A DNA stretch of 64,000 bases from Citrobacter telavivensis (GCA_009363175.1 CP045205.1:856549-920548), one strand, 5' to 3'. Positions 23,050 through 62,525 are shown, counted from the first letter of the stretch. A program made the numbers and translations. The notes: a model not told the origin generated them from the sequence alone.

Positions 23050-23808
23050 TCAGTCAGCAATACGCAGTTTTCCTGCGAAATCCTGCTGTGTATAACCCGT
23101 TGTTTTAAATCCCTTATCCGTAATGACGTGATCAATCTCTTTGAGCGTGGCGATACACATCACGCCGTCCTGACCAAATTTAGTATGGTCGGCGAGAATC
23201 ACGGATTTTTTACTCATTGCAATCATCGCTTTGGCAACGTAAGCCTCATCAAAGCTCTTCACGAGTATGCCATGCTGCGGTGAAATGCCGCCCGCACCGA
23301 TAAAGCAGATATCGGCGTGAATCGCGTTAATCTGCTGGCATACCGAGACGCCCAGATTGGCGCGGAAATGGTAATCATATTCGCCGCCTAAGACATAGAC
23401 ACGCGCCTGGAGATTATGCTCTTTTATTTTATCGGCAATTAAGGCGGAATTGGTAATAACGGAAAATGCGAAAGGAGGTAAGTGTTCGGCAAGAATAAGA
23501 TTCGTGGTACATGAATCAATAAACAGCGTATCGCGCTCGCTGACCATTCCCGCGGCGACTTTGCCAATTGCCATTTTTTCTTCACGATGCGCATCTATTC
23601 TTGCGCCAAATGCATCTTCCTGGACAACCTGTTTTTTGACTGCACCACCGTGAATTTTGGTGATCTGACCTTCAGACTCCAGTAAAGAGAGATCGCGGCG
23701 AATGGTTTCTGAGGTCACATTTAGCGTTTCTGATAATTTAATAACGGTCACTTCACCGAATTTGTTTAATTCATCAAGAATATGTTTTCTTCTTTTAATC
23801 GGGTTCAT
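23050..23808 (-). CDS. DeoR-family transcription regulator (HTH plus sugar-phosphate-binding domain)
   Basis: MNPIKRRKHILDELNKFGEVTVIKLSETLNVTSETIRRDLSLLESEGQITKIHGGA. Confidence 0.85.
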   Translation of the reverse strand: MNPIKRRKHILDELNKFGEVTVIKLSETLNVTSETIRRDLSLLESEGQITKIHGGAVKKQVVQEDAFGARIDAHREEKMAIGKVAAGMVSERDTLFIDSCTTNLILAEHLPPFAFSVITNSALIADKIKEHNLQARVYVLGGEYDYHFRANLGVSVCQQINAIHADICFIGAGGISPQHGILVKSFDEAYVAKAMIAMSKKSVILADHTKFGQDGVMCIATLKEIDHVITDKGFKTTGYTQQDFAGKLRIAD

Positions 23809-24658
23809 TATTTTCCGCCTGGGCCGAGCTTTGCCGCATGGTAACTGGATGCGCAGAGCAACGCAACCACTCCAGCGCACAGACGATACCCTCATCATCA
23901 TTCGTGGTTGTCACATAGCGGGCCTGACGTTTCACACTCTCTGGTGCGTTGCCCATCGCGATGCCGAACCCGGCAACGGCAAACATACTGACGTCGTTCT
24001 GCTGATCGCCAATGGCGGCAATCTCTGCGGTAGGTCGATTTAATTGCCGGGCGATTTCATTTATCGCATAGCCTTTATTAATCTCGCTACGTTGAATATC
24101 AATATAATTGCCGCCAGTGATCGTCGCCTTATAGTCATCAGGCAGCAGGCTGTTTATTTTCAGGCACAGATCGTCGATTCTGTCGTGTTCTGCCACCAGC
24201 GTGATTTTAAATATATCGCGACGATTAAAGATATTCCCTGGTGCGGCGTTAATAAGTGGTAACTCAAATAAGCTGGCCTCATACGATGTCCACGGAGCGA
24301 TAAGGCGATCGTAACGGTGATAAATTGCCTGTGGAGTAAAAAAATGGTGAGGATAGCGGGACAGCGAAATATGCCGGTCAATATCTCTGAGATCCATTTG
24401 GGTGAGCGCGGCAGAATGCAAAATGCGCTGCTGCGCCGTTTCAAGAATTTGCCCGCCGTTGAAGCCGGCGCACCAGCCAAACAGCGTCTCAACCTGCTGC
24501 TGTTGTAACAGGCGCGCCATGGAGGAGACCGGTCTGGCGGAACAGGCGGCCAGCAGACCGCCGTGCTGGCGAAATTCAACCAGCGCCTGACGCGTACGTG
24601 AACTGATGGTCTTCTGCGACGTCAGTAATGTTCCATCCAGATCGGTAACCAGTAGCAT
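23795..24658 (-). CDS. Cof-type HAD-IIB sugar-phosphate phosphatase
   Basis: MLLVTDLDGTLL (motif I), ...GDQQNDVSMF... (motif IV). Confidence 0.85.
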   Translation of the reverse strand: MLLVTDLDGTLLTSQKTISSRTRQALVEFRQHGGLLAACSARPVSSMARLLQQQQVETLFGWCAGFNGGQILETAQQRILHSAALTQMDLRDIDRHISLSRYPHHFFTPQAIYHRYDRLIAPWTSYEASLFELPLINAAPGNIFNRRDIFKITLVAEHDRIDDLCLKINSLLPDDYKATITGGNYIDIQRSEINKGYAINEIARQLNRPTAEIAAIGDQQNDVSMFAVAGFGIAMGNAPESVKRQARYVTTTNDDEGIVCALEWLRCSAHPVTMRQSSAQAENNEPD

Positions 24659-24673
24659 TATTGTTCTCTGTGG

Positions 24674-25540
24674 TTATGCGTGCGCAATAAAGGGGGCTAC
24701 GGCCTCTTTAGCGGCATTGCAAACCATATTGTCGATTGCCGTGCCGACGACCAGAATATTGACCCCGGTGTCCTTAAACGCTTTGGCATTGGCGAGGTTA
24801 ATTCCGCCTTCTGCCAGCGTCGGGACGTCCACCGCGCTAACCAGCGCCCGAAGACGGTCTTTAATCATCTGCGGGATATCGCCTGCCGCCACGCCCTCAT
24901 AGCTCATCCCGGTCATCAGGCCGATCATATCGACCCCCATCTCCTGCATGCGCTTCGCCACGCTGGCGACCTCTTCCGGGGTGCGTGCCGGAATGCCGAA
25001 GGTATGCAGGTCATCCGGATGACCAATGTAGGCGTCAACGGTCAGGCCATATTCATGGGCGAGGTTGACGATGTCCTGCAGGTCGTCCCAGTCAGATTTG
25101 TGGGTGTGTAAACCGTCGGCCCCGGCGCGGGCAATCTCCAGAATCTCCGTTTCACTGAGCGGCACGGGCAGCGTTTCGGTAAACCCGCCCGCAATACCCA
25201 CGGTGATGAAGATGTCGTCCGGCACCACATTACGCACACCGTGTACCGCTTCTGCCATCTGACCGTTGGTGATTTCGTGGCGGATTTGCTCCGCAGCGTG
25301 CATGTTGCTCACCCCCTTGTGTCCGCGAGCCAACGCCAGTGCCGGATGGTTGGGCTCCAGCAGTTTCACGCCTGCTTCACACACCGCTTTCGCCAGGCGC
25401 GCATCGTCGCCGGTGATCCCCGTACTGAGGATGGTTTGCCCGCCGTGCAACGCGATGGCATCTTTCACTTTCTGTAACGCTTTGGCGCGTTTTTTATTCA
25501 TATCGCCTTTAAACATGGTGTACCTCTGGTGTTGGTGCAT
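24674..25540 (-). CDS. Probable TIM-barrel enzyme (aldolase / epimerase-like). I cannot assign a family. The start may be the downstream MFKGD codon.
   Basis: Alternating beta/alpha pattern. Late motifs ...DMIGLMTGMSYEG... and EGGINLANAKAFKDTGVNILVVGTAI resemble the phosphate-binding end of (beta/alpha)8 enzymes such as Eda/NanE. Confidence 0.45.
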   Translation of the reverse strand: MHQHQRYTMFKGDMNKKRAKALQKVKDAIALHGGQTILSTGITGDDARLAKAVCEAGVKLLEPNHPALALARGHKGVSNMHAAEQIRHEITNGQMAEAVHGVRNVVPDDIFITVGIAGGFTETLPVPLSETEILEIARAGADGLHTHKSDWDDLQDIVNLAHEYGLTVDAYIGHPDDLHTFGIPARTPEEVASVAKRMQEMGVDMIGLMTGMSYEGVAAGDIPQMIKDRLRALVSAVDVPTLAEGGINLANAKAFKDTGVNILVVGTAIDNMVCNAAKEAVAPFIAHA

Positions 25541-25543
25541 TAA

Positions 25544-27130
25544 TTAACGGGCAGACGGCACAGATTCACTCTGTACGACAGCCTTAAAACGGTTCGCAAC
25601 GATGGTGGTAATGCAGGTCATGATCATGACGGTGGCCATCACGATAGCCATCTGCAGCGCATTGCTGGATAAGAACGGTGAGGCGAAAGCCGGAACGTAG
25701 GCCACCCCTTTGACGTTAAAGAAGCCGAGCATCATGCCGCCCATTCCTGCCCAGAAAATGGCGGAGCCAAAGACGATTTTGTTGGCGAACATGAAGGGGT
25801 AGGCGGATTCCACGAAGGTCCCGAAGCCCAGGTTGATAAGCAGTCCTGGTGTGGCAACGGCCGCTTCGCTTTTTTCGCGTGGCGCGATGACGTTGGCCAG
25901 GTTGATACCGGCTGCGACCATGACCAGCCCGACCATGTCCACTGCACCGAGGAAGCTGACGCCGGATTTTTCCATCTCCAGCAGCACCAGTGGCAGGATG
26001 ACCGCGTGATAGACGCCACCCAGAATGGCAGGCCAGATAACCAGACCGGCCAGCAGCCCGGCAAGAATCGGACTAAATGCCAGCGTGCTTTCGATAGCCA
26101 GTTTGATGTAGTTACCCGCGGAGAGCGCCAGTGGGCTCAACAGATAGTGCATGATCAAGCCGGCAGCCAGGCCCGAAATACCGCCAGCAACGATGTTGAC
26201 GGTGGTCATCGGGAAGCGCCAGTTCAGGCACAGTTCAAACAACCAGCGCACAAAAATCCCGGCCATCACGCCGCCAATAATCCCGCCGATCAGGCCGCCT
26301 TCAACAGAAAGCACCCCGGCGACGACCCCGGCCACAATAGAAACTTCATCAAGTTCGGAAATCTGTTTTGCCGCCAGCACAGCAACCAGCACCGGCAGCC
26401 CTTTCAGCAGGATTTCAAAGATATCGTTGAGTTTTTCCAGCCCGGGAATGTGGCTCAGGGCGAGTACGATCGCCATCGCGATAAAGCCCGGTAGCGCTGG
26501 AATCATGATGCTGCGAATGTTAAAGCGCTTGAGCAGGCTCTTTCCGGAACCGCCCTGTGAAGGTGACGCGCTGCCCAACTGGGGTTTGTACTTGATGCCC
26601 CAGTATTTACACAGCGAAGCCACGAAGGAGACCGCGCGGGTGCGGCTGGTGGTGCCGGTTGTGCCTGAAGTCGCGACCACATTGGCGCCTTTTGCGGCGA
26701 CCAGTGCCATCGACGTGCCTCCGGTGCCGACGATAGGGGTTTTCATCTCCACGGCGGCATCAAAAACGGCCTGGTTTGCTTTTACCGGATCGGCGCTCAT
26801 CACGACGATCCCGTCGATCTCACCACGGCGGATCATTCCGGCTATCCGACTATCGCTCTCGACGACGGAGGCATTCACCTCAGAGAGTTTGCCCTGGAAG
26901 ATGCGTTGTGGTTTTGTTTGGTTTTCTGTGGTTAATGCATAGACGGAGGCGGGGGTGTCAGGTTTAGCGACATCCATCGAGGCATCTGCCGCGATGAACT
27001 GCACGGCGGCGACATCCACACCTGCGGCTTCGCACTGCTGATAAATCTCCTGGAGTAACTTTTCTGGCTCGGCGCCACCCAGGTTGTAGAGGTTGCCTCC
27101 ACTGCTTCCAATAATCGCAATTTTTTTCAT
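25544..27130 (-). CDS. 528-aa fusion-like membrane protein: a ~200-aa N-terminal soluble domain followed by a Gly-rich polytopic membrane domain. Putative transporter or permease.
   Basis: Good coding potential. The membrane segments are rich in GxxxG (GVVAGVLSVEGGLIGGIIGGVMAGIF). Confidence 0.6.
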   Translation of the reverse strand: MKKIAIIGSSGGNLYNLGGAEPEKLLQEIYQQCEAAGVDVAAVQFIAADASMDVAKPDTPASVYALTTENQTKPQRIFQGKLSEVNASVVESDSRIAGMIRRGEIDGIVVMSADPVKANQAVFDAAVEMKTPIVGTGGTSMALVAAKGANVVATSGTTGTTSRTRAVSFVASLCKYWGIKYKPQLGSASPSQGGSGKSLLKRFNIRSIMIPALPGFIAMAIVLALSHIPGLEKLNDIFEILLKGLPVLVAVLAAKQISELDEVSIVAGVVAGVLSVEGGLIGGIIGGVMAGIFVRWLFELCLNWRFPMTTVNIVAGGISGLAAGLIMHYLLSPLALSAGNYIKLAIESTLAFSPILAGLLAGLVIWPAILGGVYHAVILPLVLLEMEKSGVSFLGAVDMVGLVMVAAGINLANVIAPREKSEAAVATPGLLINLGFGTFVESAYPFMFANKIVFGSAIFWAGMGGMMLGFFNVKGVAYVPAFASPFLSSNALQMAIVMATVMIMTCITTIVANRFKAVVQSESVPSAR

Positions 27131-27501
27131 AGCGGCCTCAAAGGTAGGGTAAGGGGTTATCTGTGTTGTAGTGGAATCATATTCCCAATCAAAACAAAAT
27201 AAAGCAACATGAAAAGATCGATGACAATAACCGATGAGACAATGTGACTGGCTTAATTTTATGAAAATTCAGGGGTTACGTTGTTTTTTGTTTTATGTTG
27301 TTATTTGTTGTTTTGTGATGCACTTCAAATACTGTACCGGGAGTTGAAGTACCAAAAGAAGGAATAACCTGGAAAGCGCCTCGCAGATTATGCCTTTCTG
27401 AAGTGACGATATGTCTTGCCTGAATTAGTTTACCCGAGCAGGGATGGTGCGCTTGTATTTTACTCAACAAATGCGTATAAAATTTTATACAAGGATGCGA
27501 T

Positions 27502-27857
27502 ATGCTGCTAAACAAGCAGGTACTTAGATCTGTTGCCTGGGTCGGGCATTCTTTCGAAGACTGCGCGATTTCCCGCCAGAGGTACGTAAAGATGCCGGTT
27601 ACCCACTACATCGTGTCCAGGCGGGATTAGAGGCTGCTGACTGGAAACCGATGCCTGAGATTGGGCGTGGTGTTGAAGAGCTCCGATTACGTAATGAAGC
27701 TGGAGCATACCGGATTATCTACCTTGCCCGCTTTGAGGATACCGTCTATGTGCTGCACTGTTTCAGTAAGAAAACGCAGCGGACTTCCGGGCAGGATAAA
27801 CACATTGCGCAGGTTCGCTTTCAGGCGGTCTGTCAGGAACACAGGAGGCGTCAATGA
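27502..27857 (+). pseudogene. Gp49/HigB-like (RelE/ParE superfamily) toxin gene, broken by a 1-nt deletion at about 27560
   Basis: Frame A reads MLLNKQVLRSVAWVGHSFED and then stops. Frame B continues LRDFPPEVRKDAGYPLHRVQAGLEAADWKPMPEIGRGVEELRLRNEAGAYRIIYLARFEDTVYVLHCFSKKTQRTSGQD. Together they make a typical DUF891 toxin. Confidence 0.7.
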
Positions 27858-28192
27858 GCCACGAAGTGGATACTAAAATTCGTCATGTCACTTCTGCACA
27901 GGCGAATATTTTTGCTGAACCAGGCTTTGATGACGCAGAAGCCAAACACCTTCAACAAGACGCAGAACGTGAAGTGGAACAACTCATCCGTCTCAAACAA
28001 CAGCTTATGCAGGAAATCGCTGTCTGGATTGAAGAAAATCACATGAAACAATCAGAGGCGGCGGTGAGATTAAATATCTCGCGGCCCCGCGTTTCCGATG
28101 TCGTTAACCAGAAAGCGAGCAAATTTACCCTGGATGCATTGGTCATGATGCTGATGAAGTTAGGAATACCGGTGACGGTGCAGGTAGGTTAG
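27854..28192 (+). CDS. XRE-family HTH antitoxin (HigA-like), partner of the broken toxin. Its start overlaps the toxin stop.
   Basis: ...HMKQSEAAVRLNISRPRVSDVVNQKASKFTLDALVMMLMKLGIPVTVQV is a C-terminal HTH of the addiction-module antidote type. Confidence 0.75.
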   Translation: MSHEVDTKIRHVTSAQANIFAEPGFDDAEAKHLQQDAEREVEQLIRLKQQLMQEIAVWIEENHMKQSEAAVRLNISRPRVSDVVNQKASKFTLDALVMMLMKLGIPVTVQVG

Positions 28193-29284: not shown

Positions 29285-29392
29285 CCTTCAAGCTGCCTCA
29301 GCGTTGGCTGTCTTCGTTCACCCCTGTCACTTACTTATGTAAGCTCCAGGGGATTCTCTCAGTTGCCGCCTTGATGCAACTCGAATGATTTT
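29285..29392. repeat. ERIC/IRU element (copy 1), directly downstream of rtcR
   Basis: The minus strand reads ...GAGAATCCCCTGGAGCTTACATAAGTAAGTGACAGGGGTGAACG..., the conserved ERIC core. A paralogous copy lies at 62422-62525. Confidence 0.8.
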
Positions 29393-29402
29393 GTGTATAT
29401 GC

Positions 29403-30983
29403 TCATGTTCTGACTTTGAGATTTTCCCAGCTCAGGCCGAACCGTGCGAGGTACTTACGCAGACGGTCGGCATCGTTGGGATTGGCTTTCTTCTGTCGGG
29501 AGACGGCGAAGAGTTCACGTCCGGCTTCGGACAACGATGCGCTGCGTCGGCATACCTCGAGCACCGTTTCCAGTTGGCGGCGGTCAAAGAGGTCGAGTTC
29601 CATCTCTCGTTCCGGTTGCAACGCCGTCTCCCCCCAACTCTCCTGCAAAAGCGCGATCTCTTCTTCGACGAGGGCGGGCGTAATACGCCCTTGCTCAGCC
29701 AGCGTTGCCATTCGCGCGACGGAGGAGCTCAGCTCGCGGAAATTGCCGCGCCACTGCGCCTGGGGCGAACAGGCAAACGCCAGATAGCGTTCGCGCGCCT
29801 CTTTATCAAAGCGGATCTGATTCTGTCGACTGCGGGAGAAACGTTGCAACTCATACTCAACGTTAGGGGCAATGTCTTCACGCCGCTGGGCAAGGCCGGG
29901 CAAGGCAAAGCGCCACATGTTAATACGTGCGTAGAGATCTTCGCGAAAACGCCCTTCGGCGACCCACTGTGGCATATCGCGATGGGTGCCGGCAATCAAC
30001 TGGAAGTCGCTGTGCACCTCTTTATCTGAGCCAAACGGGAAGAAGGTTTTCTCCTCGATCGCTTTCAGCAGCATGGCCTGTTCGTCCAGCCCCAGTTCAG
30101 CGATTTCATCCAGAAACAGCACCCCGCCGTCGGCTTCGCGTAACAGTCCGGTTCGCGATGACAGGGCACCTGTAAACGCGCCTTTCACATGTCCAAACAG
30201 CGTCGACATAGCGTTATCGCCGCGCAGGGTAGCGCAGTTAACCGCTACCAGTTTTCCACCCACCAGATGTCGCGACTGGCGAAGCTGGAAAATCCGTTTG
30301 GCGAGGAAGGATTTCCCCGCGCCGGTCGGGCCGGTGAGCAGGATAGGATCGCCTGAGCGCAAGGCCACGCGCTCAATGCGGTCAATCAGTTTGTTGAAGG
30401 TAGCATTGCGCGTCTCGATACCGGCTTTGAGGAAGGAGACCGACTGCTGCTGCTCACGCTGAAAGCGACTGGTGAGCGTGGCATAGCGGCTTAAATCGAG
30501 ATCGATAACCGAACAGGTGCCAGCGGCAACGTCCTCCGGTGGAGCGCCCTTCGGCGCGGGGCCGGTTTGCAGCAGGCTGGCGGGCAGATAGCGGGCTTCC
30601 GTCAACAGGAACCAGCAAATTTGTGCCACGTGAGTGCCGGTGGTGATGTGCACCAGATACTCTTCGTTCTCGGTATCGAAGGTGTAGTGCGTGGCAAAGT
30701 CGAGGAACGCGGCATAGACCTCTTCGAAATCCCACGGATCGGCAATGGTGATCGCATGCGGGCGGACCTGGGTATGTGGGGAGAGCAGGTTGATATCCTC
30801 CGCCAGTTGCTGACACATCCCGGCATCGCGTGGCTGGTGGATAAGCTCCAGTCGATCGACCGGGAAATCCGGCTGTTGACACAGTCCGACCGTTGGTCGC
30901 CATTTCTTGAGCCGGTTTGCCCGCTTGCCGCGTTTATCCAGCACCGTGCCCAGCACGCCAATCACCACCCGCCGCTTTTTCAT
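29403..30983 (-). CDS. rtcR: RtcR: sigma-54-dependent activator with an N-terminal CARF-like sensor domain, an AAA+ (GAFTGA) domain and a C-terminal HTH
   Basis: 526 aa. MKKRRVVIGVLGTVLDKRG...ITIADPWDFEEVYAAFLDFA (RtcR N-domain), GPTGAGKSFLAKRI, HVKGAFTGA, C-terminal HTH. Divergent from an rtcB operon. Confidence 0.9.
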   Translation of the reverse strand: MKKRRVVIGVLGTVLDKRGKRANRLKKWRPTVGLCQQPDFPVDRLELIHQPRDAGMCQQLAEDINLLSPHTQVRPHAITIADPWDFEEVYAAFLDFATHYTFDTENEEYLVHITTGTHVAQICWFLLTEARYLPASLLQTGPAPKGAPPEDVAAGTCSVIDLDLSRYATLTSRFQREQQQSVSFLKAGIETRNATFNKLIDRIERVALRSGDPILLTGPTGAGKSFLAKRIFQLRQSRHLVGGKLVAVNCATLRGDNAMSTLFGHVKGAFTGALSSRTGLLREADGGVLFLDEIAELGLDEQAMLLKAIEEKTFFPFGSDKEVHSDFQLIAGTHRDMPQWVAEGRFREDLYARINMWRFALPGLAQRREDIAPNVEYELQRFSRSRQNQIRFDKEARERYLAFACSPQAQWRGNFRELSSSVARMATLAEQGRITPALVEEEIALLQESWGETALQPEREMELDLFDRRQLETVLEVCRRSASLSEAGRELFAVSRQKKANPNDADRLRKYLARFGLSWENLKVRT

Positions 30984-31112
30984 GGTTTATCCCAAAAGAT
31001 AAATATCGATATTGAAAGATAAAAAATACGGAAGGCATCTGCAATCACCATTATTGGCGATAAAAATTAATCCATTATTAATCAGATAATTAAAAATTAA
31101 TTTTGTCTTTTT

Positions 31113-31128
31113 TTCGTTCTGGCACGCT
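31113..31128 (+). promoter_or_regulatory. Sigma-54 (-24/-12) promoter driving the SPFH-rtcB-NTase operon
   Basis: TGGCACgcttcTGGCA, one mismatch from TGGCAC-N5-TTGCA. It lies in the rtcR-divergent intergenic region, as in known rtc operons. Confidence 0.7.
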
Positions 31129-31138
31129 TCTGGCAATA

Positions 31139-31436
31139 ACACTCTCGTCAACACGTTGAAAGCGCAGGGGGTTAAACCCCGCCGGCACGTCAGGAACGGC
31201 AGCGGCTGTTTTCCGGAGGTGTTCCGTCAACCGATGACACCTGAACAATGGGTTCGATTCCCGATTCATTCTCCCAATGAAACTGGTTGTTAATCATAGA
31301 AATAAAAACGGGTACTGCGCAGTCAGCAGGCCCCAAAACAGGTTGCCGGTCACGATGCCGCGCCGCAGGCAAAAGGGAATTCCCCTGTAGCTTCGCCTCC
31401 GCACCCGCACCTGACTTTGATAAGGAAAAGAGAAAA
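31139..31436 (+). ncRNA. Candidate structured leader or Y-RNA-like / tRNA-like RNA between the sigma-54 promoter and the first CDS
   Basis: Non-coding stretch of ~300 nt with three elements: GGGGTT-aaa-AACCCC hairpin (31160-31176), 6-bp hairpin AGGTGT...ACACCT (31218-31243), and GGTTCGATTCCC (31251-31262), which is near-identical to the tRNA T-arm consensus GGTTCGAATCC. Confidence 0.3.
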
Positions 31437-32564
31437 ATGACGAAGAAAATCACTATCCGCAAAGGACAATTAGGTCTGTTAGCGAAAAACGGCGACTACT
31501 ATCAGGTTCTGGAGGCGGGTGAACACCGTCTGCCGTGGTTCAATACGCCAGAGGTGCTGGTGGTTAATCTGGACGGTAGCGAAGTGCCGGAAGCGCTGGC
31601 GAATTATTTACGCCGTTTTCAGCCGGACTGGGTAACGCGTTACGGTCTGGCCGTCGATCTTAACGACAGCGAAGCGGGGGCGTTATACATGAATGAGGTG
31701 TTGCAGGAGATCCTGCCGCCGTCCACGCGCCGTTTGTACTGGCGAGCCGACGAGGCGTTGAAACTGGTACGCATGGATACGCGTCAGGTTCAGGTGCCCA
31801 CAGAGGTCATGAATGCGGTCCTGCAACCGCGACGTAACGGTGCGGTTAAAGGTCGTGAAGCGATGCTCACCGTGCAGGTTCCGGCCTGGCATGCGGGTGT
31901 GTTGAAAATTGACGGTGAGACGCAGGCGCTGTTGCCGCCGGGTCTGACGGCGTACTGGAAAGTGAATCATCTGGTTGACGCGGAAGTGGTGGATACCCGT
32001 TTGCAGGTACTGGAAGTGGGCGGTCAGGAAATTTTGACCAAAGATAAGGTCAACCTGCGTCTGAATCTGGCGGCGAACTGGCGTTACAGCGACGTGCTGC
32101 AGGCTTTTGCGCAGCTCACTAAACCGCTCGATCATCTGTACCGCGAACTGCAGTTTGCACTGCGTGAAGCCGTCGGGACGCGCACGCTGGATGAGTTGCT
32201 GGAAGATAAGCAGGTGATTGATGACGTAGTCAGCGCGCAGGTGAAAAAACGTATGGCGCCCTATGGCATCGACGTGGCCTCGCTGGGCGTGAAGGACATC
32301 GTGTTGCCGGGGGATATGAAAACGATTCTGTCCCGTCTGGTTGAAGCGGAAAAATCGGCGCAGGCCAACGTGATCCGCCGTCGTGAAGAAACGGCCGCGA
32401 CGCGCTCGCTGTTGAATACGGCGAAAGTGATGGAAAACAACCCGGTAGCGCTGCGCTTAAAAGAGCTGGAAACCCTCGAAAGAGTGGCGGAGCGTATCGA
32501 TAAAATCTCGGTATTCGGTGGCCTGGACCAGGTTCTGCACGGCTTAGTGAACATTAAAGGATAA
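31437..32564 (+). CDS. SPFH/band-7 (stomatin/HflKC-like) domain protein with no predicted TM helix
   Basis: The C-terminal half is ...EILTKDKVNLRLNLAANWRYSD...GIDVASLGVKDIVLPGDMKTILSRLVEAEKSAQANVIRRREETAA..., an SPFH core plus coiled-coil tail. AAGGAAAAG ribosome-binding site. First gene after the sigma-54 promoter. Confidence 0.8.
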   Translation: MTKKITIRKGQLGLLAKNGDYYQVLEAGEHRLPWFNTPEVLVVNLDGSEVPEALANYLRRFQPDWVTRYGLAVDLNDSEAGALYMNEVLQEILPPSTRRLYWRADEALKLVRMDTRQVQVPTEVMNAVLQPRRNGAVKGREAMLTVQVPAWHAGVLKIDGETQALLPPGLTAYWKVNHLVDAEVVDTRLQVLEVGGQEILTKDKVNLRLNLAANWRYSDVLQAFAQLTKPLDHLYRELQFALREAVGTRTLDELLEDKQVIDDVVSAQVKKRMAPYGIDVASLGVKDIVLPGDMKTILSRLVEAEKSAQANVIRRREETAATRSLLNTAKVMENNPVALRLKELETLERVAERIDKISVFGGLDQVLHGLVNIKG

Positions 32565-32569
32565 GAAAC

Positions 32570-33796
32570 ATGGCACATAACGACTATGCGCTGTTGGCGT
32601 CGCAGAACGCGGCGCCGGTGAAAATGTGGACGCACGGCGTTCCGGTGGAGCCCGAAGCGCGCCAGCAACTGCTGAACACGGCGAAGATGCCGTTTATTTT
32701 TAAACACCTGGCGGTGATGCCGGATGTGCATCTGGGGAAAGGGTCGACCATCGGCAGCGTGATCCCAACCAAAGGGGCGATTATTCCGGCGGCAGTAGGG
32801 GTGGATATCGGCTGTGGGATGATCGCAGTGCGTACTTCGCTGCTGGCCGGCGATCTGCCGGATAACCTCAGCGGGTTGCGGAGCGCGATTGAGCAGGCCG
32901 TTCCACACGGGCGTACGAATACGCGCTCCCGTCGCGACAAAGGCGCGTGGGATACGCCGCCAGAGGAGGTGAGTACTCACTGGGGGATGCTGGCACCGCG
33001 CTTTAAGCGCCTGACTGACAAGTATCCCTCGTTGCTGAAGACCAACAACTATCAGCATCTGGGAACATTGGGAACCGGTAACCACTTCATTGAGGTTTGT
33101 CTGGATGAGCAGCAGCGCGTCTGGGTGATGTTGCACAGCGGCTCGCGCGGCGTGGGGAATGCCATCGGCAACGTTTTCATCACGCTGGCGCAGCAGGATA
33201 TGCAGCAGCATATCGCGAATCTCCCGGACCGAAACCTGGCGTACTTCCAGGAAGAGAGCCAGCACTACAACGACTACATTGAAGCGGTGGAATGGGCGCA
33301 GGATTTTGCCCGGCAAAACCGGGAGGTGATGATGTCCCGTGTCCTGGCCGCGCTGTCGCGCATCGTGAGTAAACCGTTTATCACCCAGCAGGAAGCGGTG
33401 AATTGCCACCATAACTATGTGCAAAAAGAGCGTCACTTTGGTGAAGAGGTGCTGGTGACGCGTAAAGGCGCTGTTTCAGCGCAGAAAGGCCAGATGGGGA
33501 TTATTCCGGGGTCGATGGGGGCGAAAAGCTTCATCGTGCGTGGGCTGGGGAATGAAGAGAGCTTCTGCTCCTGCAGCCATGGCGCAGGAAGAACCATGAG
33601 CCGAACGGCGGCCAAAAAACGCTTTACCGTGGCGGATCAGATCCGCGCGACGGCCCACGTTGAATGCCGTAAAGACAGCGAGGTGATCGATGAAATTCCA
33701 ATGGCTTACAAAGACATTGATGCCGTGATGGCGGCGCAGTCTTCACTGGTGGAGATCGTGCATACGCTGCGGCAGGTGGTGTGTGTAAAAGGATAA
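32570..33796 (+). CDS. rtcB: RNA 3'-phosphate ligase RtcB
   Basis: 408 aa with RtcB signature blocks (MPDVHLGKGSTIGSVIPT, GVDIGCGM, GTGNHFIE, HSGSRGVGN, CHHNYV, NEESFCSCSHGAGR). Very close to the E. coli RtcB sequence as I remember it. Confidence 0.93.
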   Translation: MAHNDYALLASQNAAPVKMWTHGVPVEPEARQQLLNTAKMPFIFKHLAVMPDVHLGKGSTIGSVIPTKGAIIPAAVGVDIGCGMIAVRTSLLAGDLPDNLSGLRSAIEQAVPHGRTNTRSRRDKGAWDTPPEEVSTHWGMLAPRFKRLTDKYPSLLKTNNYQHLGTLGTGNHFIEVCLDEQQRVWVMLHSGSRGVGNAIGNVFITLAQQDMQQHIANLPDRNLAYFQEESQHYNDYIEAVEWAQDFARQNREVMMSRVLAALSRIVSKPFITQQEAVNCHHNYVQKERHFGEEVLVTRKGAVSAQKGQMGIIPGSMGAKSFIVRGLGNEESFCSCSHGAGRTMSRTAAKKRFTVADQIRATAHVECRKDSEVIDEIPMAYKDIDAVMAAQSSLVEIVHTLRQVVCVKG

Positions 33797-33802
33797 AAGA
33801 AG

Positions 33803-34588
33803 ATGGCGAAAAATGCAGTGAGTGCCGCGATGCGCGAACGGGTCGCGCGGCAACTCAAAGAAGTGGAAACGCGTTACGGCGTCAGGGTGCTGTATGCCTG
33901 CGAGTCAGGGAGTCGCGGCTGGGGATTTGCCTCGCCGGATAGTGATTACGATGTGCGGTTTTTGTATGTTCATCCGCCACAGTGGTATCTGCGGGTCGAC
34001 GCGCCGCGCGACGTGATCGAGCTGCCGATAGACGATGAACTGGACGTGTGCGGCTGGGAGTGGCGTAAAGCGCTGGGACTGCTGAAGGGGGCCAACCCGA
34101 CGCTGATCGAGTGGCTGGATTCCCCGGTGGTTTATCAGCAGGATGAGGTCACGGTCAGCGCACTTAAAACGATGATACCGCAGTGGTTTTCTCCACTTCG
34201 CGCACGTTGGCATTACTACTCGATGGCGCGAAAAAACTTTCGCGGCTATTTGCAGGGAGAAGAGGTGCGGCTGAAAAAATACTTCTACGTCCTGCGTCCG
34301 CTGCTGGCGGTGCGTTGGGTCGAAGCGGGTAAAGGCGTTCCGCCCATGCGCTTTGCCGAACTGCTGGCCGGAAGCGAACTGGAGGCGCCGTTACGTCAGG
34401 AGATAGACGAACTGCTGGCGCGCAAACAGCGTGCGGGAGAGGCGGAGTATGGTCCGCGCCGTCCGTTGCTGCATGCGTTCATCCACGCTGAACTGGCGAG
34501 AGGCGAAATCCCGCCCACGCTGCCGGACAGCCGGGAAGGCGACGTGAAGGCACTGGATAAACTGCTTTATGAGACGGTGATGGTATGA
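33803..34588 (+). CDS. Pol-beta-superfamily nucleotidyltransferase, 261 aa, in the position normally occupied by rtcA
   Basis: N-terminal NTase motif ...LYACESGSRGWGFASPDSDYDVRF (hG[GS]...DxD) followed by a helical C-terminal domain. Starts 7 nt after the rtcB stop. Confidence 0.75.
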   Translation: MAKNAVSAAMRERVARQLKEVETRYGVRVLYACESGSRGWGFASPDSDYDVRFLYVHPPQWYLRVDAPRDVIELPIDDELDVCGWEWRKALGLLKGANPTLIEWLDSPVVYQQDEVTVSALKTMIPQWFSPLRARWHYYSMARKNFRGYLQGEEVRLKKYFYVLRPLLAVRWVEAGKGVPPMRFAELLAGSELEAPLRQEIDELLARKQRAGEAEYGPRRPLLHAFIHAELARGEIPPTLPDSREGDVKALDKLLYETVMV

Positions 34589-34594
34589 CTACGT

Positions 34595-34682
34595 TGCCCG
34601 ATGGCGCTGCGCTTATCGGGCCTACGTGGGCAAAATTTGTAGGCCGGATAAAGCGCGGAGCGCCGCCATCCGGCATTGAATC
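34595..34682. repeat. REP cluster between the NTase gene and lysC
   Basis: cccgatggcgctgcgcttatcgggcctac ... gtaggccggataaagcgcggagcgccgccatccggca. Confidence 0.75.
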
Positions 34683-34686
34683 TATA

Positions 34687-38062: not shown

Positions 38063-38077
38063 AGTTAATAATGAAAT

Positions 38078-38106
38078 GAGCCGATATTATTATCGGCTTT
38101 TTTTAT
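38078..38106 (+). terminator. Rho-independent terminator after pgi
   Basis: gagccgata-ttatta-tatcggc followed by TTTTTTT. Confidence 0.75.
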
Positions 38107-38425
38107 AAGATAATTCCGGTTGTCCGTGTTGTTTCCCGCAATTTTATATTGAGCATAATCCTAAAATAATAAATAACCGTAAAATAACCCAGTGTTATTT
38201 TAGGATAATACGGATCGTTTAGCTAAATGAATTTAATGTTAATATGCTGTTTTTAATGATTATTATTATTTTTATAAAAATGAATTGTTCAGCAAAAGTC
38301 CAATTATCCTAAAACCACCTTGCTATTTCCCCCTGCCGTAATTCGCATGCTTTAGTTGTGTATACTCGATCCCGCCCGAAATGCTTTTGGGTAAATCTCC
38401 ATTCATTCAATGAAGGGAAATTGTT

Positions 38426-62421: not shown

Positions 62422-62525
62422 AAAGCTGCAGGTGTGTTGGCTGCTGTCACTCACCCCAGTCACTGATTTCAGTAAGCTCCTGAGGATTCGTTCCATTGCC
62501 GCCTTCCTGCAACTTGAATGATTCA
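62422..62525. repeat. ERIC/IRU element (copy 2)
   Basis: About 85% identical over ~55 nt to the copy at 29285-29392 (gtaagctcctgaggattcgttccattgccgccttcctgcaacttgaatgatt). Confidence 0.75.

Follow-up and report, generated by a model that had tools for sequence, protein, structure and literature searches.

A horizontally acquired RNA-repair module in Citrobacter telavivensis with an SPFH protein, RtcB, RlaP and a conserved structured leader RNA

[quoted passage not shown] The ligand of RtcR, the activator of rtc operons, is known from Salmonella, where tRNA fragments activate it (PMC7790460), and activation of E. coli RtcR needs both RtcA and RtcB (PMC9650030). The biochemistry and structure of Pseudomonas RlaP were reported in a 2025 preprint, according to which the enzyme extends RNA 3'-OH ends by one or two NMPs and contributes to restoring tRNA function; its authors flagged a mismatch, as the product end is a 3'-OH whereas RtcB requires a 3'-phosphate (PMC12776372). 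Deletion of paFlo8, the SPFH gene of the P. aeruginosa rtc locus, was without phenotype in the assays tried (PMC13086221). For the DNA analysed here, a window of 64,000 nucleotides from Citrobacter telavivensis, the original prediction had expected linkages of RtcB to Band-7 proteins and nucleotidyltransferases to appear in surveys, as they do in that of Burroughs and Aravind, relayed above; its statement that it knew of no experimental work on the combination is outdated by the RlaP and paFlo8 studies. The cluster in the window is a genuine, horizontally acquired RNA-repair module, and its type, largely uncharacterised, is already known from comparative genomics and is not a new kind of system.

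The rtcR gene is divergent from a sigma-54 promoter, which is followed by a leader of ~290 nt and by the SPFH/slipin, rtcB and rlaP genes, spaced 5 and 6 nt apart. The locus and its flanks contain the following features.

27504..28192, plus strand: higB pseudogene and intact higA (Gp49 and HTH_37 domains)
29300..29375: ERIC-like element between panS and rtcR, core at about 29315-29358
29403..30983, minus strand: rtcR, CARF-AAA+(sigma-54 activator)-HTH transcriptional activator (Pfam, NCBIfam, PADLOC)
30986..31030: candidate RtcR upstream activating sequence, A/T-rich with repeated TTATC...GATAA, adjoining the rtcR start
31120..31135, plus strand: sigma-54 promoter TGGCACGCTTCTGGCA, TGGCAC-N5-TGGCA (-24 GG, -12 GC), by pattern match
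31146..31436, plus strand: conserved, structured leader RNA of ~290 nt (RNAalifold, pair counts)
31437..32564, plus strand: soluble SPFH/Band-7 slipin, 375 aa (Band_7 PF01145, E 9e-27)
32570..33796, plus strand: rtcB, 3'-phosphate/2',3'-cyclic-phosphate RNA ligase (PF01139, E 2e-131)
33803..34588, plus strand: rlaP, RNA ligase-associated Pol-beta nucleotidyltransferase (PF10127, E 7e-96, full length)
34589..34686: REP/BIME-like palindromic spacer, GCCGGATAAAGCGC..., recognised by eye, separating the convergent rlaP and lysC

These four genes lie where the original prediction had placed them, with RtcR divergent from the promoter and a leader-SPFH-RtcB-nucleotidyltransferase order lacking rtcA and rsr. 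Searches of the 64 kb found no rtcA (best tblastn E 0.25), rsr, tRNA gene or Y RNA, the Rfam YrlA and Y RNA models had no match in the window, and a single copy of RtcB is present. No sigma-70-like promoter was found at the locus, where terminator-like sites occurred at chance level and no internal signal rose above chance. The flanks were also described correctly: each half of the ERIC core, at 29315 and 29335, carries two substitutions and two insertions relative to the consensus, and higB, which is 62% identical to the intact C. portucalensis HigB over residues 3-118 (tblastn), has an in-frame stop upstream of an intact higA.

RtcR contains PF06956 (CARF-type, 1.5e-79), Sigma54_activat (5e-48) and AAA_lid domains (Pfam), exceeds the 650-bit cut-off of the NCBIfam RtcR equivalog NF038308 with 822 bits, reaches 865 bits with the PADLOC RtcR model, and is 61% identical to E. 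coli RtcR. Across 11 Enterobacterales loci from 9 genera the sigma-54 promoter keeps its position with little or no change in sequence, and transcription would start near 31146; the putative activating block is conserved across 11 aligned Enterobacterales intergenic regions. The SPFH open reading frame spans 31287-32564 (plus strand), but the 375-aa length of all homologues and their shared N-terminus, MTKKITIRKG, place the true start at the ATG at 31437; an AAGGA Shine-Dalgarno sequence precedes it. In the protein, an N-terminal extension of 150 residues that forms two beta/alpha units is followed by a stomatin-like SPFH domain and then by a long C-terminal helix, with the match to stomatin extending through the C-terminal oligomerisation helices, and neither a transmembrane nor a hairpin membrane anchor was found in it. 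RtcB is 72% identical to its E. coli counterpart and conserves all eight residues that we take to be catalytic (D75, C78, H168, H185, H281, H337, R341 and R345 in E. coli numbering); it is predicted to be catalytically intact. RlaP has a GS...DxD motif at residues 36-50 and is 58-61% identical to homologues that occupy equivalent operons in Pseudomonas and Chitiniphilus.

The leader could be divided into the following elements, all on the plus strand.

31147..31238: multi-branch 5' domain (helices 1-4 and covariance model R1), with P1 31147-49/31236-38, P2 31155-59/31227-31, hairpin P3 31164-70/31177-82 and long hairpin P4-5 31183-200/31205-26
31249..31263: tRNA-type T-arm hairpin GGGTTCGATTCCC, T-loop TTCGATT, read from the sequence
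31265..31281: hairpin P7 (TTCATT-CTCCC-AATGAA), directly 3' of the T-arm
31310..31334: hairpin P8, in 11 of 11 sequences with differing stems
31340..31412: 3' domain, 31340-50/31403-12, 31357-58/31395-96 and 31362-73/31380-91

The consensus fold holds 55 pairs, 36 of them with compensatory change (RNAalifold). By pair counts, 96% of cells are paired and 37 of the 55 pairs show double changes, compared with 13 ± 2.6 in shuffles and 12 or fewer in slid controls. This covariation bears out the structured leader of about 300 nt that had been proposed from the sequence, although folding the one sequence by itself gives no significant signal (z = 0.09). Helices 1-4 of the 5' domain are 89-100% paired with double changes in 21 of 30 pairs, and model R1 recovers the domain upstream of betaproteobacterial SPFH genes (L011, 37.8 bits, E 2e-6; L012, 32.5 bits; L013, 28.7 bits). 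The stem pairs of the T-arm (helix 5) covary. P7 stands where a tRNA would have the 3' strand of its acceptor stem, a place at which hairpins of differing sequence are found in L003, L004, L002 and L083-L085; support for it is weaker, since RNAalifold missed it owing to alignment problems. In the 3' domain (helices 6-8) 14 of 21 pairs have double changes, and model R2 matches all Enterobacterales loci and Gilliamella (28.5 bits, E 2e-4) with none further afield. The leader matches no Rfam family at E ≤ 10, and ARAGORN finds no tRNA in it. Nearly all of the 80 related loci have the motif GGTTCGAnTCC 180-600 nt 5' of the SPFH gene and on its strand, and T-loop motifs upstream of SPFH homologues span Proteobacteria, Cyanobacteria and Chloroflexota. 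The RNA elements of other taxa form complete tRNA-like genes that encode their CCA ends; in Dechloromonas the second element is recognised as a genuine tRNA (Rfam tRNA, 47.9 bits), and YrlA is weakly matched beside it. The cloverleaf tRNA-like copy present in betaproteobacterial and other classes is missing from the window's leader, which makes a role as a tRNA mimic less obvious at this locus. New in our analysis is that the leader is a conserved, covariation-supported structured RNA with a canonical, tRNA-type T-arm hairpin, and that it is, as judged by its covariance-model matches, homologous to RNAs located 5' of SPFH genes in Betaproteobacteria; it is the local version of the Band-7/SPFH-associated RNA. 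The original prediction recognised neither the T-arm nor this RNA family.

The leader might instead be a purely cis-acting 5' UTR that controls stability, processing or translation, with the SPFH protein working without RNA, which we consider unlikely. Its structured region reaches the Shine-Dalgarno sequence with no terminator before the SPFH gene, the free-standing tRNA-like copy is lost in the enterobacterial form, and a 3' domain conserved only in Enterobacterales and Orbales might fit a lineage-specific regulatory leader. However, the 3' domain does not pair the Shine-Dalgarno sequence, the position of the T-arm relative to SPFH genes is kept across phyla with or without RtcR, the complete CCA-encoding genes elsewhere argue for an RNA product, and the Salmonella operon transcript yields processed Y RNAs (PMC7790460).

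The Citrobacter amalonaticus clade has SPFH-RtcB-RlaP as its standard order, at a fixed site between panS and lysC; the order is thus common in the source clade, an eventuality the original prediction had raised, but is uncharacterised. Divergent RtcR with SPFH was found in 27 of the 80 fetched loci (leaving out L012, a 37% partial match) and in the window, and of these 28 loci 21 have RtcB, 16 RlaP and 10 RtcA. The order in relatives is SPFH-RtcB-RlaP-RtcA, in Pseudomonas with rtcR divergent from SPFH-rtcB-rlaP-rtcA. The same module without rtcB occurs in the C. freundii complex, Kluyvera and Klebsiella oxytoca. The locus had been described as the native module with canonical RtcB and RtcR orthologues and replaced partners. 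Such a vertically inherited locus, in which RtcA (and Rsr) gave way to new partners, would share its protein families and RtcR/sigma-54 logic with E. coli, as is observed, and would fit both the sole RtcB in the window and the one fixed site throughout the C. amalonaticus clade. We nevertheless regard it as very improbable. The identities to E. coli of 72% (RtcB) and 61% (RtcR) are low for Enterobacteriaceae orthologues; RtcB is closer (76-81%) to the enzymes of SPFH-linked operons in Providencia, Pseudomonas and Chitiniphilus, and the panS-lysC site differs from glpR-rtcR-rtcBA-malT of E. coli. Near-identical modules, whose SPFH proteins show 93-94% identity, have an integrase as neighbour in [Enterobacter] lignolyticus and IS1/ParA/DnaB in Chania. 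Enterobacterales carry the module patchily, and none of the 5,426 complete E. coli genomes contains it, in agreement with the predicted accessory insertion beside lysC missing from K-12. Since SPFH and RlaP coexist with RtcA in relatives, they are ancestral partners, and rtcA was lost rather than replaced. The locus thus appears, on these comparisons, to represent a laterally acquired lineage and not the E. coli orthologue.

The locus is probably a laterally acquired RNA-damage-response operon of a "Band-7/SPFH + tRNA-like RNA + RtcB + RlaP" class. RNA damage would generate pieces of tRNA or rRNA that end in a 2',3'-cyclic phosphate, and by analogy with known rtc systems these would be sensed by the CARF domain of RtcR, whose AAA+ domain would open the promoter at 31120-31135. 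The layout suggests a single transcript carrying the structured RNA, which may be processed into a stable form, followed by SPFH, RtcB and RlaP. As in E. coli, RtcB would reseal 3'-phosphate or 2',3'-cyclic phosphate ends to 5'-OH ends, and, as in Pseudomonas, RlaP would extend trimmed 3' ends by one or two nucleotides and thereby let shortened RNAs regain function. The membrane-less SPFH protein may oligomerise into a stomatin-type ring or cage and, in contact with the T-arm-bearing RNA, form a scaffold or cofactor RNP for RtcB and RlaP, paralleling the Ro60 ring and tRNA-like Y RNA of Salmonella rsr-yrlBA-rtcBA. The gene identities, catalytic motifs, promoter, tight spacing and RNA covariation and homology support this explanation, as do the linkage of SPFH to divergent RtcR in 28 loci and the stomatin match of the anchorless SPFH protein. 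Against it stand the missing cloverleaf copy, the 3'-OH versus 3'-phosphate mismatch between RlaP and RtcB at a locus from which RtcA and a kinase, either of which could bridge the two end chemistries, are both missing, the RtcA requirement of E. coli RtcR (PMC9650030) and the lack of a phenotype for paFlo8 deletion in the P. aeruginosa assays tried. Furthermore, C. portucalensis, Kluyvera and Klebsiella keep RtcR, the RNA, SPFH and RlaP without RtcB, and the SPFH-RNA pair is therefore not solely an RtcB cofactor. A core unit of these four components with RtcB optional, mainly remodelling or protecting tRNA 3' ends or sequestering damaged tRNAs, would accommodate the incompatible end chemistries of RlaP and RtcB, the RtcB-less versions that C. 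portucalensis and Kluyvera carry at this very lysC site and those in Klebsiella, Superficieibacter, Lonsdalea and Mangrovibacter, all with a clean SPFH-rlaP junction, as well as the 38 of 80 SPFH loci without RtcB within 7 kb. It is doubtful in view of the widespread, cross-class SPFH-RtcB-RlaP(-RtcA) order and the apparently intact RtcB of the window, and RtcB-less genomes may encode RtcB elsewhere.

Compared with known systems, our locus resembles P. aeruginosa rtcR | paFlo8-rtcB-rlaP-rtcA in its divergent RtcR, its SPFH-RtcB-RlaP order and the T-arm RNA upstream of SPFH, with identities to Pseudomonas homologues of 54-58% (SPFH), 76-78% (RtcB) and 58-59% (RlaP). It differs from the Pseudomonas-type Band-7 system in lacking rtcA and the near-canonical cloverleaf (b7a-tRNA), in having one T-arm instead of two and in its enterobacteria-specific 3' RNA domain. 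With E. coli rtcR | rtcBA it shares the divergent RtcR, the sigma-54 promoter and an RtcB that belongs to the same class and retains every catalytic residue, whereas RtcA is absent, SPFH, RlaP and the 290-nt leader are present and the chromosomal site is different. The Salmonella rsr-yrlB-yrlA-rtcB-rtcA operon has the same RtcR/sigma-54 control and likewise a putative ring-former and a tRNA-featured RNA 5' of rtcB, but the window has no TROVE/Ro60 protein or Y RNA, its SPFH fold is unrelated, and its RNA precedes the protein gene instead of following it. The SPFH domain and long C-terminal helices are those of the stomatin, HflK-HflC and prohibitin cages (16- to 24-mer), with the human stomatin sequence match covering residues 185-373; unlike these cages, the protein has no membrane anchor or NfeD partner and carries the N-terminal extension. 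Repeated N-terminal beta units leading to an SPFH "shoulder" and a long helix are also the architecture of the eukaryotic vault protein MVP, whose chains aligned over the greatest length in Foldseek (405-461 columns, E about 1e-10 to 1e-11), and, as with vault RNA and MVP, the SPFH protein is associated with a small structured RNA, here through its gene context.

The locus comprises rtcR and, divergent from it, three closely spaced genes, and domain searches (RtcR, SPFH, RtcB, RlaP) place the four genes exactly at the coordinates proposed in the original prediction. The features of the operon are as follows.

29403-30983, minus strand: rtcR, with an RtcR-type CARF domain, a sigma-54 AAA+ domain and a lid/HTH region
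31120-31135, plus strand: predicted sigma-54 promoter TGGCACGCTTCTGGCA, with the GG-N10-GC pattern
31437-32564, plus strand: SPFH/Band-7 gene, with an ATG start and an AAGGA Shine-Dalgarno sequence
32570-33796, plus strand: rtcB (PF01139, 439 bits)
33803-34588, plus strand: rlaP (PF10127, 'RlaP', full length)

RtcR scored 822.6 bits against the NCBIfam equivalog NF038308 (cut-off 650), covering residues 3-523 of 526, and contains the domains PF06956, PF00158 and AAA_lid_14. The promoter expected opposite rtcR was found, and its sequence is kept in 11 loci. A mechanical call of the SPFH reading frame begins at a TTG at 31287; the start was set at the ATG at 31437 because all homologues are 375 amino acids long and begin there. 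The gaps between the SPFH gene, rtcB and rlaP are 5 and 6 nt, a search of the operon for sigma-70-like promoters gave none with terminator-like sites at the chance rate, and there is no additional gene between rlaP and lysC. The lack of rtcA and rsr holds, as tblastn of E. coli RtcA against the whole 64-kb window gave a best E of 0.25 and a domain search of the operon proteins found no TROVE/Ro60 domain. The locus is a compact form without RtcA, consisting of a single promoter, a single RNA and three proteins. In PADLOC 2.0 RtcR alone matches (model PDLC01993), with no model for the SPFH protein, RtcB or RlaP.

Alignment of the window RtcB with the E. coli enzyme shows that D75, C78, H168, H185, H281, H337, R341 and R345, which we take to be the catalytic, metal and GMP-histidine residues of E. 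coli RtcB, are all kept. RlaP matches PF10127 with 321 bits over profile positions 1-248 of 249, carries the GS...DxD Pol-beta motif (GSRGWGFASPDSDYD) and is 58-61% identical to its Pseudomonas and Chitiniphilus homologues. Its start 6 nt past rtcB is consistent with the RNA-ligase-adjacent position that defines RlaP; a sequence search with RlaP of a PDB copy that lacks the PfRlaP structure gave no match. The SPFH protein matches PF01145 (94.7 bits). By phmmer it matches PH stomatin (7e-22) and, over residues 185-373, human stomatin (2e-18), and the best Foldseek matches are stomatin and HflK; sequence and fold matches together comprise stomatin, HflK/C and prohibitin. The match to stomatin extends through the C-terminal helices that form the cage in stomatin. 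The monomer model (pLDDT 89.5) consists of two N-terminal beta/alpha units, the SPFH domain and a helix at 292-353, with the N-terminus confidently modelled as a beta-rich soluble domain. Classical stomatins are anchored, whereas no membrane anchor was found in the window protein (maximum 19-residue Kyte-Doolittle hydropathy 0.95); the lack of a hydrophobic segment suggests that it should be cytoplasmic. The family comprises 537 clusters at E <= 1e-30.

[quoted passage not shown] The same source raises possible redundancy of the Band-7/b7a-tRNA pair with Rsr/YrlA and describes the b7a RNA as lacking experimental validation. The original prediction knew of no experimental work on the combination; this needs amending for two of its components. 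Two Pseudomonas RlaPs, from operons with rtcB-rlaP-rtcA and a divergent rtcR, add 1-2 NMPs to RNA 3'-OH ends and have been proposed to counter nucleotide-removing ribotoxins (PMC12776372, a December 2025 preprint). In P. aeruginosa, paFlo8 is an SPFH gene inside the rtc locus, and deleting it produced no phenotype when growth, virulence, motility, biofilm and oxidative stress were assayed (PMC13086221, 2026).

The window SPFH protein is 100% identical to Citrobacter amalonaticus proteins and to a protein under the label C. freundii; its identity to C. farmeri and C. telavivensis proteins is 99%. The arrangement panS-rtcR, divergent from SPFH-rtcB-rlaP-lysC-pgi, is found at the same site in 4 other assemblies of the clade, so this gene order, predicted as a variant, is standard in this Citrobacter clade, but the system is largely uncharacterised. 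Other gene orders were scored in 80 loci that an SPFH-protein profile retrieved. SPFH-rtcB-rlaP-rtcA with divergent rtcR occurs in Pseudomonas, Chitiniphilus and Delftia; Dechloromonas has SPFH-rtcB-rlaP-rtcA with RtcR not detected. The window order is shared with Burkholderia. In further loci rtcR is divergent from SPFH-rtcB-rtcA-rlaP, SPFH-rtcB-rtcA, SPFH-rtcB or SPFH-rlaP. Several Pseudomonas and betaproteobacterial loci have the SPFH gene and rtcB separated by a spacer of about 0.45 kb that is missing from the window (gaps of ~430-510 nt in L007, 8128-8564, and in L014, L017, L020 and L025). The SPFH-adjacent RtcBs of two betaproteobacterial MAGs (L008, 8697-9773; L013, 4396-4866) are 30-34% identical to that of the window and therefore fall into another class of RtcB that occupies the same context.

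A native RNA-repair locus with replaced partners, with RtcB and RtcR as the canonical orthologues, was the reading of the original prediction. RtcR belongs to the RtcR equivalog. The module is present in 0 of 5,426 E. coli genomes, in which the rtcB gene alone matches, at 73% nucleotide identity. The proteins are only 72% (RtcB) and 61% (RtcR) identical to those of E. coli, and the sites differ, glpR/malT flanking the E. coli rtc locus and panS/lysC that of the window. The RtcBs of SPFH-linked operons are 81% (Providencia), 79% (Chitiniphilus) and 76-78% (Pseudomonas) identical to the window protein, and modules with 93-94% identical SPFH proteins have as neighbours, in [Enterobacter] lignolyticus, a phage-type integrase and, in Chania, IS1/ParA/DnaB; a plasmid search showed no sign of a plasmid-borne module. 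The identities, the site and the mobile-element neighbours therefore mark the locus as a lateral lineage and not a vertical orthologue of E. coli rtcR-rtcBA. Relatives have SPFH and RlaP together with RtcA, which makes both long-standing partners of this RtcB lineage; the window form has lost rtcA instead of exchanging its partners.

The decayed toxin-antitoxin pair and the ERIC element described as flanks are present, and STnc430 lies beyond the operon.

27504-27857, plus strand: higB pseudogene (Gp49/RelE family), interrupted early by an in-frame stop relative to the intact 118-aa C. portucalensis gene
27854-28192, plus strand: higA, intact
29300-29375, no strand assigned: ERIC-like element between panS and rtcR
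38067-38228, minus strand: STnc430, an enterobacterial sRNA (full-length match, 136.6 bits), downstream of pgi

STnc430 is the sole Rfam family found in the 64 kb, searches for tRNA, Y RNA, YrlA and the others being negative. The higB/higA pair is missing at this site in other C. amalonaticus-clade genomes, and a second, weaker ERIC-like match lies at ~62448-62495. Between yjbD and the higB pseudogene, an island at ~23100-27211 encodes a PTS transporter, a Cof-type HAD hydrolase and a DeoR regulator; few E. coli strains share it, at ~81% identity, and the majority of E. coli genomes match rluF-yjbD only.

The ~300-nt structured leader proposed upstream of the SPFH gene was upheld by comparative covariation and not by folding, since the leader folded alone is no better than shuffles (z = 0.09); the structure claim therefore rests on comparative data. 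In a full-length alignment of 11 Enterobacterales sequences from 9 genera, the consensus comprises 55 pairs (96% of cells paired), and both sides change in 37 pairs, compared with 13 +/- 2.6 for column shuffles and <=12 for slid partners. The leader contains the following elements.

31147-31238, plus strand: 5' multi-branch domain (consensus structure)
31249-31263, plus strand: T-arm hairpin GGGTTCGATTCCC, a textbook tRNA T-arm
~31265-31281 and 31310-31334, plus strand: two more hairpins, P7 and P8 (per-sequence folds only)
31340-31412, plus strand: 3' domain (consensus structure; covariance model R2)

For the segment linking T-arm and 3' domain, RNAalifold returned no structure, owing to misalignment. 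An AGGTGT/ACACCT stem, spotted by eye as anticodon-like, was rejected because it is not kept in other loci; the covarying P1/P2/P4 pairing takes its place. The Rfam matches of the leader are all at chance level, among them mascRNA (minus strand, E 1.6) and NsiR8 (E 0.34), which were also rejected.

In nearly all 80 loci the SPFH gene is preceded on its own strand by a GGTTCGAnTCC T-loop motif, mostly as two copies 70-78 nt apart outside Enterobacterales. Many of these elements are called as tRNAs by ARAGORN, often with odd anticodon loops, and in 48 of 81 loci tRNA calls lie no more than 700 nt before the SPFH gene. Covariance model R1, built from the 5' domain and T-arm, detects betaproteobacterial loci (L011, 37.8 bits, E 2e-6; L012, 32.5; L013, 28.7 bits) and aligns to them with the same P2-P5 helices, the window T-arm being the counterpart of their first T-loop. 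The second element of these loci is close to a canonical tRNA (L011: Rfam tRNA, 47.9 bits), and Rfam and ARAGORN found no counterpart of it in the window. ARAGORN calls no tRNA in the window and Rfam gives no tRNA match at E <= 10, so the tRNA likeness of the leader is limited to the T-arm. The 3' domain was detected by R2 in Enterobacterales and Gilliamella only; the alignment of enteric with betaproteobacterial sequences downstream of the tRNA-like elements was set aside as too ambiguous. The leader agrees with the b7a-tRNA in being a predicted ncRNA beside a Band-7 gene in an RtcB neighbourhood, structured and homologous to its betaproteobacterial counterparts, but lacks the strong cloverleaf likeness to a genuine tRNA. 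Supported by covariation and absent from Rfam 15, it is a candidate new RNA family.

The RNA elements of other loci vary. The first element of L011 (6498-6707) is mini-tRNA-like, with an acceptor-like stem, one hairpin, a T-arm and an encoded NCCA end, and directly precedes a near-canonical tRNA-like gene whose acceptor stem is short; similar elements occur in the betaproteobacterial loci L012, L013, L015, L019, L021, L026 and L031. In L011 both elements are spanned by a match to Rfam YrlA that is weak (24 bits, E 0.01). A second subgroup, of Gammaproteobacteria and others (L041, L043, L044, L046, L049, L051, L054, L059, L065, L067, L071, L072, L075 and L078), has the SPFH-nearest T-arm preceded by a conserved TGGTAAAGGC-loop-GCC motif in place of a D-arm and anticodon arm, and Providencia L005 looks intermediate. 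Of 53 RtcR-less loci, 14, including L054 (2530-6667), L031 (2530-6583), L015, L035, L046 and L067, carry a same-strand array of 4-25 tRNA genes immediately before the tRNA-like element and the SPFH gene; among 28 RtcR-scored loci the only one with such an array is L012, whose 'RtcR' is a 37% partial match. No published link between tRNA arrays and SPFH/Band-7 genes was found in the literature.

Based on homology to studied proteins and on the gene layout, the most likely mechanism is that RtcR would sense damaged RNA and switch on the sigma-54 promoter, giving a single transcript that would yield the RNA, the SPFH protein, RtcB and RlaP, after which RtcB would reseal breaks and RlaP would rebuild trimmed 3' ends. 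In Salmonella, tRNA fragments activate RtcR (PMC7790460). By analogy with Ro60/Y RNA, a putative SPFH cage and the T-arm RNA would act as a scaffold or cofactor. Several observations weigh against so simple a scheme. RtcB requires a 3'-phosphate, which RlaP does not supply (PMC12776372), and the locus has neither RtcA nor a kinase for this mismatch in end chemistry. In E. coli, RtcR activation requires both RtcA and RtcB (PMC9650030). The loss of the cloverleaf copy and the lack of a phenotype for the paFlo8 deletion also count against it, as do sister loci without rtcB. In Kluyvera and C. portucalensis, SPFH-rlaP with divergent rtcR occupies the same lysC site with rtcB cleanly missing, and this order also occurs in Klebsiella oxytoca, Superficieibacter, Lonsdalea and Mangrovibacter. 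The rtcB-less loci (L084, 5001-6922, Kluyvera sp. CRP; L085, 5001-6919, C. portucalensis; L001-L004; L039) have retained the leader RNA together with rtcR, rlaP and the SPFH gene, with 5-8 nt from the SPFH stop to the rlaP start.

Less likely, the core functional unit could be independent of the ligase, as these sister loci would suggest; the intact catalytic residues of the window RtcB and the wide occurrence of SPFH-rtcB-rlaP, with or without rtcA, count against this. Also less likely, the leader, lying between promoter and SPFH gene, could be a cis-acting element, against which its T-arm and the tRNA calls at related loci count. A bolder reading, which we regard as possible though rather unlikely, is that the leader is a processed stable ncRNA, a cloverleaf-less descendant of the b7a-tRNA, which with a soluble vault-like SPFH cage would form a stress-induced RNP capturing damaged tRNAs or fragments of rRNA and handing them to RlaP and RtcB. 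If true, bacteria would have in this RNP, next to Ro-Y RNA, a third 'ring/cage + small RNA' machine, and the rtcB-less loci would show a ligase-independent function of the RNP and RlaP. One such function could be to decoy or sequester toxins that target tRNA, an idea that fits the link of the SPFH family to tRNA gene arrays in other phyla.

Predictions of RtcB operons with modules of the 'scaffold + small RNA' type (Ro60/Y RNA, Band-7/b7a-tRNA) date back a decade. The locus bears on SPFH-RNA binding, on RtcR activation without RtcA and on how the 3'-OH chemistry of RlaP relates to the 3'-phosphate requirement of RtcB. Its Citrobacter host, a close relative of E. coli, should be genetically tractable, the locus is compact, and the rtcB-less sister loci at the same chromosomal site are natural comparators. 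The underlying observation is confirmed and its first interpretation was right in part; little in the locus would surprise a specialist, and its interest is moderate. Compared with known systems, the canonical E. coli rtcBA operon has RtcA, whereas the window operon does not, and the Salmonella Rsr/Y RNA module has a TROVE/Ro60 protein and YrlA/YrlB RNA, both of which the window operon lacks. The system is of a kind known from comparative genomics and partly from biochemistry, here in a variant without rtcA and without the tRNA-like cloverleaf.
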